This document shows positions 8,298 to 50,988 of a DNA stretch of 64,000 nt, piece by piece. The position numbers were made by a program, and so were the translations under genes. Below the pieces are notes generated by a model. That model was not told the DNA's origin and ran no database searches. It saw only the letters and a program-made list of their open reading frames with translations. The stretch's first letter is position 1, and each line of letters opens with the position of its first letter. The DNA lies in contig OZ252008.1 of assembly GCA_965246995.1 (NCBI GenBank), positions 947,986 through 1,011,985 on the forward strand. The letters are read 5' to 3'. This stretch comes from Vicinamibacterales bacterium (GTDB taxonomy: Bacteria; Acidobacteriota; Vicinamibacteria; Vicinamibacterales; UBA8438).

Positions 8298-8345
8298 TTA
8301 GGCGCCCGTGGTGAAACCTCGCGTAGCACCGCCACGGGCGGTTAG
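8298..8345 (-). repeat. 48-bp internally deleted derivative of the 184-bp element, TTAG-bounded
   Basis: The sequence is TTAGGCGCCCGTGGTGAAACCTCGCGTAGCACC-GCCACGGGCGGTTAG. Its first 33 nt match the reverse complement of the right end of the 184-bp element at 29/33. Its last ~15 nt match the other terminus. Confidence 0.6.
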
Positions 8346-32163: not shown

Positions 32164-32347
32164 ACAGGAGCCCGTGGTGAAACCCCCGCTACATTCGAGC
32201 GGCGACGCATCCCGCCTGAACGGCGTTGCTCCTCGGACTGCGTCAGTCCGCGGTCGCAATATGGCCAATATGCTCCCTCGTCGCGCCTTGTCAGGCGAGC
32301 GCCTCGTCGCTCTCGGTGCTACGCGGGGTTTCACCACGGGCTCCTAG
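32164..32347 (+). mobile_element. 184-bp inverted-repeat element, copy 1 (MITE-like)
   Basis: About 95% identical (9 mismatches by my count) to 48005..48188 in the same orientation. The terminal inverted repeat is GGAGCCCGTGGTGAAACCCC / GGGGTTTCACCACGGGCTCC. The right flank is CTAG and the left flank is ACAG. Confidence 0.8.
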
Positions 32348-44890: not shown

Positions 44891-47800
44891 TCAGCGCCGT
44901 GCGGTAGCGAGACAAACGGCAGGAACAACCAACATGTTGAGTGCGGTGGAGGTAACCAGACCGGCAACGATCACGAGGGCCAGCGGAGCCTGAATCTCAC
45001 TGCCAGGCTGACCGGCAGCGAGGGCCACCGGAGTGAGGGCGAGACCGGTCGACACCGCGGTCATCAGCATCGGAATCAGGCGGTCGACCGATCCTCGGAT
45101 CACGGCCGCTTCCGGGTCGCCACCCGCCTGCTGCTGCCGCCGGATGTGCGCCACCAGCATGATGCCGTTGCGCGAGGCGATACCGAATAGCGCAATGAAG
45201 CCGATGAGTGAAGCGATCGAGAGAATGCCATCGCCCAGGAAGACCCCCGCAACGCCGCCGATCAGCGCGAGCGGCAGGTTGATCATCACAATCGCCGCGT
45301 CGCGCACCGATCCGAACGCCGTGGCGAGCAGCAGGAAAATGCCCGCGACGGCGGCGAGACCGAAGCCGATCAGCAGCCGCGACGCCGCCTGTTCCGCCTC
45401 GAACTGCCCGCCGTAATCGACGCGGTAGCCGGGTGGCAGTGAGACGTCGCCGTCCACGCGCGTGCGGACATCGGCGACTACGCTGCCGAGGTCGCGGCCG
45501 GCGGTGTTCGCGGTGACGACGATTCGCCGCTCGCCGTTCTCACGTCCGATAACGTTTGGCGATCGGTCCTCGACGACTTCCGCCAGGCTGCCGAGCGGGA
45601 CGCGCGCACCCGTCGGAACATCGAACCAGGTCTGTCCTACCTGCTCGAGGTCGGCCAGGTCCGGCCGCGCGTGGCGCAGGACAAGGGGCACCAGCACCGG
45701 ACCCTCGACAATCTGTCCTACCTGCCGGCCGAGCAGCGCGGTCTCGAGCATCGCGGCTGCCTCGCCCGCCGGCAGTCCATGCCGTGCGAGAGCGCTCCGG
45801 TCAAAGCCGACGCGCACCGTCGGAATGTCCGCCTGCGGCTCGACCGCGACATCGACCAGGCCATCGATCCCCGTCATCGCGGCCGCCGCGTCGCGGCCCA
45901 AGGCACGCAGTACCGGGAGATCACGGCCGAAGATCTGCACCGCGATATTGGCGCGCGAACCGGACAGCATGTGATCGATCCGGTGCGAGATCGGCTGGCC
46001 GAGCGTGATGTTCGTGCCCGGAACCAGCGACAGCCGCTCGCGGATCTCCGCCAGTACCGTCTCCCGCGGGCGGCCGCCGGGTGTCAACCGCACATCGATC
46101 TCGGCGGACTCGACGCCCTGGACATGCTCGTCCAGCTCCGCGCGGCCGGTCCGGCGGGATGTCGCTTCCACCTCGGGCACATCGAGCAGCAACCGCTCGA
46201 TGGCACGGCCCAGCGCGTCCGACTCTGCCAGGCTGGTGCCGGGCAGCGTCACGGCACTCACCACCAGCGCACCCTCGTTGAACGGCGGCAGGAAGGCGCG
46301 TCCCATCCGTGGCACGGTGGTCAGGGCGGCGACGAACAGGAGCAACGCCGCGCCGACCACCCACGCGGGCCGACGGACGAAGAACGGCAATATCGCGCGG
46401 TAACCCCGCTTCAGCGTTGCCGCGAGGACCGGCTCCCGCCCATCGCGGATCCCGCTCGCGCGCGGCAGCAGGTACGCCGCGAGCGCCGGTGTGACGGTCA
46501 GCGCCACGACGAGCGACGTGCCGAGCGCAATCAGGTAGGCAACACCAAGCGGTTGCAGCAGACGTCCCTCGACGCCGGAGAGAAAAAAGAGCGGCACGAA
46601 CACCAGCATGACGATGACGGTCGCGAAGACGATGGAGCGTCGGATCTCGCGGCTCGCATCGATCACGACATCGAGCGTCGGCCGACGCGAGCGCTCCGGC
46701 AACCGCCCGTTCTCGCGGAGCCGGCGCGTAACATTCTCGACATCGACTATCGCATCGTCCACCAGGGCCCCGACCGCGATCGTCAACCCGCCGAGGGTCA
46801 TGCTGTTGATCGACAGACCCGCCGCACTCAGGCCCATAACTGCGGCCAGTAGCGACAGCGGGATCGCCAGCAGCGTGATCGCGCCCGCACGCGCGCTGGC
46901 AAGGAAGATCAACGTGACGGCAATCACGAGCAACATGCCGTCGCGCAACGCCGCATTCAGGTTGTTCAGCGCCAGTTCGATGAAGTCCGCCTGGCGGAAG
47001 AGACGCGTGGAGAGCTGCATGCCGGACGGCAGTTCCTGCGCCAACTCGTCGAGGACACTATCCAACTCGCCCGTCAGCGTCAGCGTGTTGACCTCCGGCT
47101 GGCGGTGGATGCCGAGAATCACCGCCGGACGGCCGTTGTGCGATCCTTCGCCGCGCTTCAGCGACTCGCCAACCTGCAGCCGGGCAACATCGCGGACGCG
47201 GATCGGCCGCATGTCGCGGGTGGCGACCACCGTCGCGCCGATACCGTCGATCCCGGTGACACGTCCGGATCCCCGGATCAGATACTCCTGGCCACCGGCA
47301 AGACGGAATCCGGCCGAGGTGTTCCGGCTGGCGCCGCGGAGAGCCGTTTCGACCGCGCTGAGCGGGACGCCGTAGGCGGCCAGACGGTCAGGCTCTACCA
47401 GCACCTCGTACTGCCGCCGTTCGCCGCCGATGACTGTCACCTGCGAGACGCCGGGAGTTGCCAGCAACCGACGGCGGACCACCACCTCCGCCGTCGTCCG
47501 GAGCTCGAGCGGCGTGGGCGCGGGCAGACCCGATGCCTCGGCCACGTCGGCCGACGGCTCGAGGGCCACGAACATGATCTCGCCCATGATCGAGGAAAGG
47601 GGCGCCAGTACCGGTGGCTCCACCGCATCCGGCAGGCTGGCTGCGACCATGCTCAGTTTCTCGGTCACCGTCTGGCGGGCGCGGTACGGATCGGCGCCCC
47701 AATCGAAGTCGGCCCAGATCACCGCAATCCCGACCGCGGTAGCGGAGCGGATCCGCCGCACGCCGGAGGAGCCGTTGAGCGCCGATTCGATCGGAATGGT

Positions 47801-47995
47801 GACGAGCGCCTCCATGTCGGACGGCGCCATGCCGTGGCCTTCGACAAGCACGGTGACGGTGGGCGCGGTCAGGTCGGGCAGGACGTCGACCGGCATGCGC
47901 ACGGCAACGACAGCCCCCCAGGCGAGGCCGATAGCAGCAACGGCGGCCACGACGAGGCGATTGCGGACCGACCAGGCGATGAGTGCGTCGAGCAT
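44891..47995 (-). CDS. czcA: CusA/CzcA-family heavy-metal efflux RND pump
   Basis: 1034 aa with a typical HME-RND N-terminus (MLDALIAWSVRNRLVV) and 12-TM layout. Confidence 0.95.
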   Translation of the reverse strand: MLDALIAWSVRNRLVVAAVAAIGLAWGAVVAVRMPVDVLPDLTAPTVTVLVEGHGMAPSDMEALVTIPIESALNGSSGVRRIRSATAVGIAVIWADFDWGADPYRARQTVTEKLSMVAASLPDAVEPPVLAPLSSIMGEIMFVALEPSADVAEASGLPAPTPLELRTTAEVVVRRRLLATPGVSQVTVIGGERRQYEVLVEPDRLAAYGVPLSAVETALRGASRNTSAGFRLAGGQEYLIRGSGRVTGIDGIGATVVATRDMRPIRVRDVARLQVGESLKRGEGSHNGRPAVILGIHRQPEVNTLTLTGELDSVLDELAQELPSGMQLSTRLFRQADFIELALNNLNAALRDGMLLVIAVTLIFLASARAGAITLLAIPLSLLAAVMGLSAAGLSINSMTLGGLTIAVGALVDDAIVDVENVTRRLRENGRLPERSRRPTLDVVIDASREIRRSIVFATVIVMLVFVPLFFLSGVEGRLLQPLGVAYLIALGTSLVVALTVTPALAAYLLPRASGIRDGREPVLAATLKRGYRAILPFFVRRPAWVVGAALLLFVAALTTVPRMGRAFLPPFNEGALVVSAVTLPGTSLAESDALGRAIERLLLDVPEVEATSRRTGRAELDEHVQGVESAEIDVRLTPGGRPRETVLAEIRERLSLVPGTNITLGQPISHRIDHMLSGSRANIAVQIFGRDLPVLRALGRDAAAAMTGIDGLVDVAVEPQADIPTVRVGFDRSALARHGLPAGEAAAMLETALLGRQVGQIVEGPVLVPLVLRHARPDLADLEQVGQTWFDVPTGARVPLGSLAEVVEDRSPNVIGRENGERRIVVTANTAGRDLGSVVADVRTRVDGDVSLPPGYRVDYGGQFEAEQAASRLLIGFGLAAVAGIFLLLATAFGSVRDAAIVMINLPLALIGGVAGVFLGDGILSIASLIGFIALFGIASRNGIMLVAHIRRQQQAGGDPEAAVIRGSVDRLIPMLMTAVSTGLALTPVALAAGQPGSEIQAPLALVIVAGLVTSTALNMLVVPAVCLATARR

Positions 47996-48004
47996 CTCTC
48001 GCTG

Positions 48005-48188
48005 CTAGGAGCCCGTGGTGAAACCCCCGCTACATTCGAGCGGCGATGCATCCCGCCTGAACGGCGTTGCTCCTCGGACTGCGCCAGTCCGCGGTCTCAA
48101 TATGGCCAATATGCTCCCTCGTCGCGCCTTGTCAGCCGGGCGCCTCGCCGCTCTCGCTGCTACGCGGGGTTTCACCACGGGCTCCTAG
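48005..48188 (+). mobile_element. 184-bp inverted-repeat element, copy 2 (MITE-like), CTAG on both sides
   Basis: See copy 1. It runs from CTAG at 48005-48008 to CTAG at 48185-48188. It lies between czcB and czcA. Confidence 0.8.
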
Positions 48189-49732
48189 TGGGTATGGCCG
48201 TGGGCAGGGACCTGGGGTGAGAGAGCCGCGAGGCGGATCAGCGGCGCGCCGTGGATGACGATACGTTCTCCTAGAGCGACATCTCCCGTCACCTGCACGG
48301 CGTCCCCCTCCCGGTTGCCGAGCGTGACCGGGCGGCGTTCGAACGACTCGCCTCCCACTTGCACGAAGAGCACCGGCTGACCCGCATCATCGACGATGGC
48401 GCTTTCCGGCACCGTGATCGTCTCCATCCCTTCCGACAGGAACAGGCGCAGCGTTACCGCCTGGCCAATCACGATCCGGCGATCGGGGTCACGCAACTCG
48501 TACGTGATCGGAACGGTGCGGGCGCCGAGATCGAGAACGCGGCCCACGGCCACCAGCCGTTCGAGGGGCACTGGCGCGCCGAGACCCGGGACTTCGAGTT
48601 CAGCGCCGGTCAGGTCGCCGATCCGCGGAAGCGCAGCCTCCGGCACCGCGCCCACGACATGCACCCGATCCACGGCCACCAGTTCGAACAAACGTGCTGC
48701 CGCCTCGATGCTCGCCCCCGGTGTCGCTTCCGAGAACGCGACAACACCGCTGATCGGCGCACGCAGCACGAAGCGGATGTCATGCTCGCCGTCACCCTCA
48801 CCGGCCCGTGTCGCATCAAGTTGGGCGATATGCGCCTCGGCCGCGTGGAGGCGTACCTCGGCGATATCCTCGGCGACCCGGGCTTCAAGCTGCCGCCGCG
48901 CCGGCACCGCGCCAGCCGCCACCAGGCGATCGACGCGCGCCCGCTCGGCCCGGCTCAGCTCGAGTGCGCTTCGCGCCTCCGCCACGTCCAGTTCGAGCGC
49001 CGGCCGGTCCTCGCCATGACCGCTGTGTGGGATTACCTCGGCCAGCGTGTCGCCCCGCGTGACGAGCGAGCCGATGGGCAGTGGCGGCAGTTCCTCTGCC
49101 AGACGGCCCGTGACCGGCGTGGTCACGTCGGCGCGGCCGCCGGTACGCGGCGCAATCTCGGCCGCAATCGACAGACTGTCGGCGACCGGACGCACCGTGG
49201 CAGGCGCGGTGCCGAAGTCGAGCGCCCATTGCTGTTCCTTCAGGAAGGAGATCGATCCGTCATCTTCGGCCGCCGTGACGGCAGCGGATGCCGCATCGGG
49301 CGAGGCGTGCACGGTCACCGCCCCGAGGCGATGCCGGTCGGCGAGGCCGGGCGCATCGAGCAGGATTTCCAGCTCGTACGCGCCGGGAGAAGATGGCGTG
49401 ACGTCGATGCCGAAGATACCGGGGCGGCTGGGAGCGTCGGCGGTGTAAGTCTGATCCGCGGCGCCACGCAACAGCACAGTCGCGCGGCCCGACCGGATCG
49501 GTTCGAACGTCGCCAGATCGGTCAGATGGACCGCGAAGCGGCTTGTCTCTCCCGCCGCGAGGGCGGGGTACTCGACGAACAACTCGGTGCGGTCAGTCCA
49601 GCGAGTCTCGACGACCGACGGCCGGACATCCGGATCCACCACCGGCGCGGCCGCCGGCGCCATGTCGGATCCACCGGCGCAAGCGGCGGACACCAGGGCC
49701 ACGATCCCGGCAAACGCCCGCGTCATCGTCAT
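48185..49732 (-). CDS. czcB: RND efflux periplasmic adaptor (CzcB/CusB-like)
   Basis: 515 aa with a lipoprotein-like signal peptide. It has coiled-coil and beta-barrel MFP blocks and a His-rich tail PAHGHTH. Its TAG stop is the terminal CTAG of the element. Confidence 0.85.
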   Translation of the reverse strand: MTMTRAFAGIVALVSAACAGGSDMAPAAAPVVDPDVRPSVVETRWTDRTELFVEYPALAAGETSRFAVHLTDLATFEPIRSGRATVLLRGAADQTYTADAPSRPGIFGIDVTPSSPGAYELEILLDAPGLADRHRLGAVTVHASPDAASAAVTAAEDDGSISFLKEQQWALDFGTAPATVRPVADSLSIAAEIAPRTGGRADVTTPVTGRLAEELPPLPIGSLVTRGDTLAEVIPHSGHGEDRPALELDVAEARSALELSRAERARVDRLVAAGAVPARRQLEARVAEDIAEVRLHAAEAHIAQLDATRAGEGDGEHDIRFVLRAPISGVVAFSEATPGASIEAAARLFELVAVDRVHVVGAVPEAALPRIGDLTGAELEVPGLGAPVPLERLVAVGRVLDLGARTVPITYELRDPDRRIVIGQAVTLRLFLSEGMETITVPESAIVDDAGQPVLFVQVGGESFERRPVTLGNREGDAVQVTGDVALGERIVIHGAPLIRLAALSPQVPAHGHTH

Positions 49733-50988
49733 GGGACAGGATTCTCTCCGACTGCGCGATCCAGCTCGACCGTTGCGCGACGCGCCGCGGCGAGCAACTC
49801 CGTTTCGCGCAACGCAGCGCTAAGCGTGACGCGATGCGCGTCGAGCAACTCCAGGACTCCGTACTCCCCTTCTTCGTATGCCACCTGCGCGATCGACGCC
49901 AGTTCCGCCGCCGGTTCAACCGATGTCATCCGGTACTCGTCCGCCAGCGCAGCGTATCGGCGCGCCGCGGTGAGGGCAACACGCAACTGCTGTTCGATGC
50001 GGCCGCGCAAGACGTGGCGCTCCGCCTCGATGCGCGCGCGCGCCGCTTCTGCGCGCGCGGCCTGCAACTGGCCCCGGTTGAAGAGCGGGACGCCGACCGT
50101 CGCACTTACCGCGTAGCCGAGGTCGGTATCGATCAGCGCACTGCCGCTCCGCTTCAACCCAGCCGTCACCGCCGCGTCCGGCAGACGCAAGCGCTCGGCC
50201 GCACGCCGCTCGATCGCCCACTGCGCCTCGCGCGACACCAGCGCCCGATAGTCAGCCCGCTGTTCCAGGGCGCGCGACAACAATGTCTCCAGGCCATCGG
50301 CCACCGTGTCGGCTGCGAGGTCGTCGAGACCGCCGGCGGCCACCAGTCCGTCCGGATCGGACCCGGGCGCGAAGAACGCGACGAGACCGGCTTGGGCCGT
50401 CGCCTGCTGAATCCGGGCGATGGCCAGATCCGCTGCCTCCTCCGCCACCTCTCGCTCGGCCCGCTGCCGGTCGAAACGGGATCCTTCACCCTCCTGCTCA
50501 CGTGCCCGCAACAACTCGACCAGGCGCCGCAGCTCCGAAACACCCGCCTCGATCGCCGCCGTCCGCGCCTGCGCCAGCAACAGTTCCGTGAATGCCAGGC
50601 GGAGCGAAGTCTCGAACGCGAACAGATCGGCGTCGGCCCGCGCGCTTGCCGCCTCGGTCGCGCGGCGCGCCGCTTCCCCGAACAGTCCGGTCCGCCCGCG
50701 CAGCGGCAGCGGTTGCGTGACCAGCAGGAAGTCGTCCCGGTTCCCGGCAGCGTCTTCTCGCGTATAGCTGAGCGTCGGGTTGGCCGGGAGGCTCCGCTCG
50801 AGTGCGTCCGCTTCCGCCTCGCGGACGCCAAACCGGAGCGCCCGCACCGCCGGATGCTCCTGGCGCATGCGTGCGATGGCCTCCGCCTCGGTCAACCCCT
50901 GCGCGAACGCCGGCTCCCCCGTGCCAGCAGCCAGCACCAGTGCGCCGCCAATCGCAGTCGCCAGACCCACTCGTCGCCATTGCCTCAT
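49729..50988 (-). CDS. czcC: TolC-family outer-membrane efflux protein (CzcC-like)
   Basis: 419 aa with a signal peptide and two OEP repeats. It forms an ATGA-type 4-nt overlap with czcB. Confidence 0.85.
   Translation of the reverse strand: MRQWRRVGLATAIGGALVLAAGTGEPAFAQGLTEAEAIARMRQEHPAVRALRFGVREAEADALERSLPANPTLSYTREDAAGNRDDFLLVTQPLPLRGRTGLFGEAARRATEAASARADADLFAFETSLRLAFTELLLAQARTAAIEAGVSELRRLVELLRAREQEGEGSRFDRQRAEREVAEEAADLAIARIQQATAQAGLVAFFAPGSDPDGLVAAGGLDDLAADTVADGLETLLSRALEQRADYRALVSREAQWAIERRAAERLRLPDAAVTAGLKRSGSALIDTDLGYAVSATVGVPLFNRGQLQAARAEAARARIEAERHVLRGRIEQQLRVALTAARRYAALADEYRMTSVEPAAELASIAQVAYEEGEYGVLELLDAHRVTLSAALRETELLAAARRATVELDRAVGENPVP

Follow-up and report, generated by a model that had tools for sequence, protein, structure and literature searches.

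A CTAG-bounded MITE-like element at the adaptor stop codon of a czc-type efflux operon in a Vicinamibacterales bacterium

The efflux operon and its 184-nt insert

The window analyzed here, a 64-kb stretch of DNA from a Vicinamibacterales bacterium, contains an operon for a heavy-metal RND efflux system with an inverted-repeat element between its adaptor and pump genes (Table 1). The pump scored 743 bits with the NCBIfam model TIGR00914 for the CusA/CzcA family (cut-off 701) and the adaptor 114 bits with TIGR01730 for RND adaptors (cut-off 94.9), while the ORF of the outer-membrane factor gave only weak TolC/NodT-like NCBIfam matches. The label 'czcCBA' is a fair one at the family level and does not fix which metal is concerned. 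The pump of this operon is the only one in the genome that passes the CusA/CzcA cut-off, and both ORFs beside the element are full length. The gene boundaries named in the original prediction were confirmed: czcC and czcB overlap by 4 nt, the adaptor frame ends with ...PAHGHTH-TAG, its TAG (48187-48185, minus strand) lying within a CTAG, and the pump ATG at 47995 is found 9 nt past the other CTAG.

Table 1. Features of the czc-type locus and of the second element copy in the window (positions are those of the window).
Feature	Position	Strand	Remarks
CusA/CzcA-family heavy-metal RND pump gene	44891..47995	-	1034 aa, intact
Native czcB-czcA spacer CAGCGAGAG	47996..48004	-	9 nt, Shine-Dalgarno-like GAGAG, unchanged by the insertion
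MITE copy	48005..48188		184 nt (176-nt body between two CTAGs), 184-nt size class
Left TIR CTAGGAGCCCGTGGTGAAACCCC	48005..48027	+	czcA-proximal, matches IS end CAGCCCGTGGTGAAAG
Second CTAG of the target-site duplication	48005..48008	-	czcA side
Internal mini-hairpin GGACTGCGCCAGTCC	48076..48090	+	with adjoining bases, the 18-nt size-class module
Weak sigma-70-like motif CTGACA-16-CATATT	48108..48135	-	inside the element, faces czcA
Right TIR	48166..48188	-	czcB-proximal, complementary to the left arm
CTAG with the adaptor stop (TAG 48187-48185)	48185..48188	-	copy of the target-site duplication plus native stop
Periplasmic adaptor gene (czcB-like)	48185..49732	-	515 aa, C-terminus ...AHGHTH
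Outer-membrane factor gene (czcC-like)	49729..50988	-	419 aa, 4-nt overlap with the adaptor gene
Second MITE copy ('copy 1')	32164..32347		left end decayed to ACAG

The presence of a mobile insert between the adaptor and the pump gene, which had been proposed from the letters of the window, was borne out. The insert has a length of 184 nt, and its two TIR arms are complementary over all of their 23 nt (100%). The TIR occurs five times in the 64-kb window compared to an expectation of 0, which is far above chance; besides copy 1, a solo family end is present at 8298-8320. The copy in the czc operon has the family '+' orientation on the plus strand of the window, so that the czc mRNA contains its reverse complement. 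It differs from the consensus of the 184-nt class at four positions and is among the youngest, least diverged copies. The reading frames within the element comprise at most about 60 codons and encode no transposase. A search of positions 47800-48400 against Rfam gave no match at E ≤ 1, and a scan of the same region revealed no intrinsic terminator, by which an identity as an Rfam family or as an intrinsic terminator was ruled out.

A CTAG-targeted family and its putative partner insertion sequence

To place the insert in its genomic context, the complete assembly (G000, a Vicinamibacterales MAG consisting of one 4.55-Mb contig) was searched. Counting those of 150 nt or longer, it contains 104 family copies, and almost all of them have a CTAG on either side. 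Three size classes can be told apart, with 50 copies of about 166 nt, 36 of 184 nt and 18 of 201 nt, which differ by the presence of zero, one and two copies, respectively, of the 18-nt mini-hairpin module. At the modal lengths of 166, 184 and 202 nt, an insertion adds 162, 180 or 198 nt net, in each case a multiple of three, and such lengths were found for 63 of the 104 copies. In either orientation, the frame in which the terminal TAGs act as stops contains no other stop codon along the element; read-through of the czcB TAG would add 60 residues and end at the second TAG. The family was also detected in 25 of 41 related genomes, among them every one of the six congeners and members of seven further families within the order, with TIRs that are conserved across genera. 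A literature search for any described MITE in Vicinamibacterales found none.

The tetranucleotide CTAG is rare in G000 (1757 sites, observed/expected 0.36), and MITE ends account for about 10% of its occurrences. Several MITEs directly adjoin an IS or a further MITE, with one CTAG in common, as is expected if the flanking CTAG of a resident element is re-used as target. TAG is the stop codon of 1523 of 3529 genes in G000 (43%, based on crude ORF calls), which is unusually high for a GC content of 67%.

An insertion sequence with TIR-like ends similar to those of the MITE is present in the same genome. It is about 1.47 kb long and encodes a protein of 469-482 aa with the Pfam domains DUF772 and DDE_Tnp_1, both of which pass their thresholds. 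Its ends read CTAG-CAGCCCGTGGCAGAAG... and ...CTTTCACCACGGGCTG-CTAG, the second of which is matched almost exactly by the MITE ends (compare CAGCCCGTGGTGAAAG of the IS with the matching GAGCCCGTGGTGAAAC of the MITE). At least 14 full-length copies were found, all of them flanked by CTAG; ten copies of an abundant subfamily match the query equally well and are probably near-identical to each other. In its domain pair, its length and its CTAG at both flanks the partner IS resembles the IS1182 and IS5 families, but the transposase scored below the NCBIfam cut-offs of both the best model, IS1182 (176.5 bits, cut-off 270), and the second one, IS5 (IS5_4; 86.6 bits, cut-off 140). The partner IS is thus IS1182/IS5-like, an assignment that is not firm with scores under both curated cut-offs, and it may represent a divergent lineage. 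Its transposase would catalyze transposition of the MITE in trans.

The insert is short and free of a transposase gene, has TIRs, a CTAG duplication, empty sites in relatives and many copies, and coexists with an IS that has matching ends. Every sequence-level criterion thus points to a MITE, i.e., to a non-autonomous derivative of a DDE-type IS. With respect to the insertion mechanism, its closest counterpart is MITEPsy1 of Pseudomonas syringae, a 100-nt derivative of ISPsy2 that is mobilized in trans and duplicates CTAG or YTAA (PMC3189936). Both elements are short and non-coding, carry TIRs, insert at CTAG and duplicate 4 nt; MITEPsy1, in contrast, has 18-nt TIRs of unrelated sequence (GGAAGGTCTG...) and a host from another phylum, and no fold-back of the whole element has been described for it. 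Mobility of MITEPsy1 was shown by experiment, whereas the czc element is known from its sequence.

REP and BIME elements are high-copy palindromes situated between co-transcribed genes, whose relative expression they can alter (malE-malF etc.). REPs are described as 20-40 nt long, with GTAG/CGTC heads and RAYT (Y1) transposases (PMC3733652). An identity of the czc element as REP or BIME was ruled out by its family size range of 166-201 nt, its TIRs of the DDE-IS type and the duplication of CTAG.

Several further repeats accompany the family in G000. In addition to many solo ends, there are about 20 short TIR-to-TIR derivatives of approximately 55-95 nt, e.g., at 627671-627758, 673019-673106, 1284469-1284522 and 3563673-3563763. 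Outside the window, MITE-type ends (CTAGCAGCCCGTGGTGAAAC ... GTTTCACCACGGACTGCTAG) enclose a 1.5-kb segment (G000:C1:3029079-3030595) that lacks a transposase gene. Its product is an ankyrin-repeat protein of 477 aa, the N-terminus of which resembles a signal peptide; the segment may be a derivative with a passenger gene or a gene flanked by two solo ends by chance. Another repeat, starting with CTAGTGCTGTGCCATCAATAAACATTAGGAC, occurs in 15 copies, for example in the flanks of the copies at 857141, 1291256 and 4232518. The first 154 nt of this repeat recur with 99-100% identity at five places in the congener G004, the genes of which are otherwise 80-87% identical, and this suggests a second CTAG-flanked IS that moved recently between the species. 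A further CTAG-ended repeat (GAGAAATCCGGG, followed by CTAG) is present in 36 exact copies, with a GAATAATCCGGG variant in five, and often abuts a MITE.

The insertion site and the origin of the adaptor stop codon

According to the original prediction, the element supplies the stop codon of czcB, and related czcB-czcA junctions were to be inspected for an empty CTAG site and the native czcB end. For this purpose, the flanks of the element were joined with a single CTAG and searched in relatives; 79 orthologous loci were fetched from named genomes, from which 78 adaptor-pump junctions could be extracted. Empty CTAG sites together with the native czcB end were indeed found. In the congener G001, the junction reads ...GCGCAC TAG followed by 18 nt and ATG, and in G019, which belongs to another genus, ...CCCAC TAG GGACCCC ATG with a spacer of 7 nt. 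The usual spacer of the orthologues has a length of 7-25 nt, and many junctions consist of CAC TAG, 7-12 nt of similar GAG-rich sequence and ATG. Removal of the element and one CTAG in silico yields CAC TAG CAGCGAGAG ATG, i.e., a typical 9-nt spacer. The adaptor stop of the orthologues is TAG, TGA or TAA, and it is directly preceded by GH(T/A/V)H in all 78 cases.

The claim that the element provides the stop was therefore not upheld, since relatives with an empty site already read CAC TAG, a short spacer and ATG. Based on the conserved GH(T/A/V)H-stop of the 78 orthologues and the short CAC TAG junctions of relatives, the TAG is the native stop codon, which served as insertion target and was regenerated by the duplication, leaving the C-terminus of CzcB unchanged. 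Before the insertion, the last base of the final His codon of the adaptor and the native TAG formed the CTAG target. The element integrated at this site with duplication of CTAG, so that one copy still ends the adaptor gene and the other one precedes the untouched 9-nt spacer and the pump start. The converse view, in which the 184 nt are an ancestral structured spacer, or another C-terminus and stop were native and gave way to the element, can draw on no more than the position of the stop within a repeat; with 104 copies across the genome, short empty CAC TAG junctions in relatives and the same C-terminal motif in 78 of 78 orthologues, it was refuted, and we assign it practically no probability.

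For seven other copies in G000, relatives without an element at the corresponding site were found. Two of these sites (2838803-2838986 and 886321-886504) could be aligned in five or six relatives as flank, 4 nt and flank, with no gap. With G as the first and C as the last base of the element, a 4-bp duplication of CTAG and a 2-bp duplication of TA in a C-TA-G context are indistinguishable. Variation is more frequent at the outermost base than at the inner three, a hint that the outer target positions are preferred but not obligatory.

The same junction is also occupied in other genomes. In G004 and G005, the two closest relatives (81-82% adaptor identity), the adaptor-pump spacer is 86 nt long, and its last 54 nt align with the element's right half, running opposite to the copy of G000 (alignment score 58 versus 27), with an end decayed to CCAG. 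Locus L075 from another genus has a 44-nt internal fragment of the element, again in opposite orientation. The stop-codon site of the adaptor gene was thus struck at least twice independently. Other inserts of 49-890 nt, including unrelated palindromic repeats, are present at about 19 of the 78 junctions, and insertions between adaptor and pump gene are tolerated. One palindromic repeat distinct from the MITE (...GCGCGCACATGCGCGCCTCGCGGGCGCGGAGTGGGGCC...CGGGGCGAAGCCCCGTCTAA) was observed at this position in L048, L058, L062, L064 and L065, once as a tandem pair. In L051, L052 and L054 the spacers have a length of about 850-890 nt, and that of L052 harbors an additional 245-aa ORF with a VLDMACGDG motif, resembling SAM-dependent methyltransferases.

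To judge whether gene ends are favored across the genome, genes were called by crude rules, which required an open frame of 80 codons or more, a GC3 of at least 0.75 and a GC2 clearly lower than GC3. A terminal TAG of the element closes a coding-like ORF in 40 of the 104 copies, and in three of them this is the case at both ends. Among vacant CTAG sites outside genes, 336 of 1100 provide an ORF-closing TAG, and the comparison with 40 of 104 (Fisher p = 0.10) gave no evidence for a stop-codon preference beyond CTAG targeting and loss of intragenic insertions. The arrangement of the czc operon, in which one CTAG holds the stop and a co-directional start follows the opposite end by no more than 30 nt, is present in 18 copies. 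Such tight junctions are not depleted, as they make up 18 of 43 occupied stop codons compared to 93 of 350 vacant ones (p = 0.05). With respect to the upstream gene whose stop the element holds, a hand tally gave 17 copies in one and 18 in the other orientation, i.e., no bias. Overlap with the stop codon and intercistronic position are thus best read as by-products of CTAG targeting and of the loss of intragenic insertions rather than as signs of a function, and the czc insertion is an ordinary case within its family. The roughly 18 tight junctions without orientation bias favor a tolerated, near-neutral insertion over a regulatory device.

The hairpin on the operon mRNA and its possible effects

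The long hairpin that had been expected on the operon mRNA was recovered by RNA folding. As RNA, the insert folds into a single hairpin of -118 to -120 kcal/mol (for the value of -120.1 kcal/mol, z = -8.2 compared to shuffled sequences), in which the TIRs are paired in silico in a perfect 23-bp duplex that extends into the hairpin. The stem is followed by CAGCGAGAGAUG, which is not a U-tract, and partial termination by an intrinsic terminator, one of the effects originally considered, was ruled out because no terminator-like site is present. Partition-function folding gave a mean unpaired probability of the spacer and AUG of 0.44 with and 0.45 without the element.

These properties are consistent with the following model. 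On the mRNA, the element would constitute a self-contained, insulated hairpin domain. It would not terminate transcription, since no U-tract follows the stem, and the ribosome-binding region of the pump gene should stay as accessible as before. The fold-back would hold the adaptor stop and the pump start near each other in space despite their distance of 193 nt in sequence, and this proximity may help to keep translational coupling. Owing to the insulated hairpin, the lack of termination, the accessible ribosome-binding site and the stop-start proximity, expression of the operon would be largely preserved and the insertion tolerated, with an effect on the adaptor:pump ratio that is at most modest. 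Taken as a whole, the reading that the element inserted at CTAG with duplication of the target, that the native stop was kept, and that expression is largely preserved and the insertion tolerated is in our judgment probable.

An effect on expression is nevertheless plausible. Ribosomes can terminate more slowly where a stable stem starts at the stop codon, and slowed termination has reportedly been observed for E. coli REP elements close to stop codons, with a mechanism said to involve trans-translation. A ribosome that finishes czcB must melt a GC-rich stem including the stop codon, by which the output of adaptor or pump could drop. The genome encodes an rnc homologue (RNase III; 213.7 bits, over the cut-off), and cleavage between the cistrons appears quite possible, as a 23-bp duplex is a good substrate. 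Precedents exist in other bacteria. Correia elements in transcripts of the Neisseria efflux operon mtrCDE are cut by RNase III at their TIR duplex, ERIC elements alter mRNA stability, and Chunjie, a MITE from Geobacter uraniireducens, is located in an operon (PMC10969869). With regard to position and possible RNA effects, these three appear by analogy to be the closest known systems. Like the czc element, the Correia element (CREE) is a hairpin MITE transcribed within the mRNA of an RND efflux operon, but it duplicates TA, is 100-155 nt long, lies adjacent to a promoter and contains an IHF site, and its effects on expression were demonstrated whereas those of the czc element are predicted. Chunjie, as described in the review, differs in sequence, host and size (178-235 bp).

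On this basis, RNase III or RNase E might process the hairpin, or it might attenuate transcription or translation, with the pump uncoupled from the other subunits and probably made at a lower level, and the insert might be kept since it tunes the subunit ratio. Besides the stable hairpin with its perfect terminal duplex, the RNase III gene and the Correia and ERIC precedents, the inserts at about 19 of the 78 orthologous adaptor-pump junctions and the conservation of the fold across genera speak for this explanation. It is opposed by the missing U-tract terminator, by the predicted accessibility of the ribosome-binding site, which the element does not change, by the spacers of only 7-18 nt in close relatives, and by the random orientation relative to genes, which is unexpected for a strand-specific RNA function. 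A regulatory role is not favored by the genome-wide pattern, and we consider it unlikely.

The conservation of the fold merits a separate comment. Across genera, 95% of the cells of the alignment are paired, and 13 of 56 pairs show compensatory changes, compared to 7.1 ± 1.3 in shuffled controls (none of 500 as high) and 2-4 in slid controls. The changes include pairs near the apex. It can be argued that selection acts on the fold over its whole length, and not only on the ends to which the transposase binds, and that the element is a portable RNA module repeatedly recruited at the adaptor-pump junction of metal-efflux operons in Vicinamibacterales, where it would tune the subunit ratio. If this were true, the module would be a processing or stability site or a stop-start 'bridge' that lets the element settle in tight junctions. 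The covariation is no proof of an RNA function, however, since co-evolution of both ends as binding sites of one transposase would give a similar pattern, and this also holds for the arms when they are invoked for RNase processing. We regard the module as an improbable idea. Four conserved G-U pairs in the family '+' orientation, seen in copies from eight genera, turn into A-C mismatches on the other strand; the orientation present in the czc mRNA still folds slightly better (-117.8 versus -107.6 kcal/mol).

A further alternative is an outward promoter, CTGACA-16-CATATT, from which the pump gene would now be transcribed without need of the operon promoter. One sigma-70-like match points towards czcA where 0.0 are expected in shuffled sequences, and the motif is present in most copies of G000. 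The match comprises only 9 of 12 positions, however, the -35 part is replaced by TGGCAA-type sequences in other genera, and the A/T-rich '-10' coincides with the apex of the hairpin. Gene starts are faced by the promoter-like side of the element no more frequently than by its other side (46 versus 47 overall, 25 versus 21 within 150 nt). Due to the weak match, the unconserved -35 part and the lack of an orientation bias, a promoter was rejected as the main reading and is very improbable.

In the annotation of these soil Acidobacteriota, a TAG inside a repeat end will normally be the gene's own stop and not a truncation. As the operon encodes the sole CusA/CzcA-type pump of the genome, any effect of the insert would bear on metal tolerance. 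The approximately 18 tight junctions that accommodate a near-perfect hairpin of 166-201 nt, apparently without counter-selection, represent a natural test set, which may be used to learn how much secondary structure operon junctions tolerate and whether a fold-back that holds stop and start close to each other preserves translational coupling.
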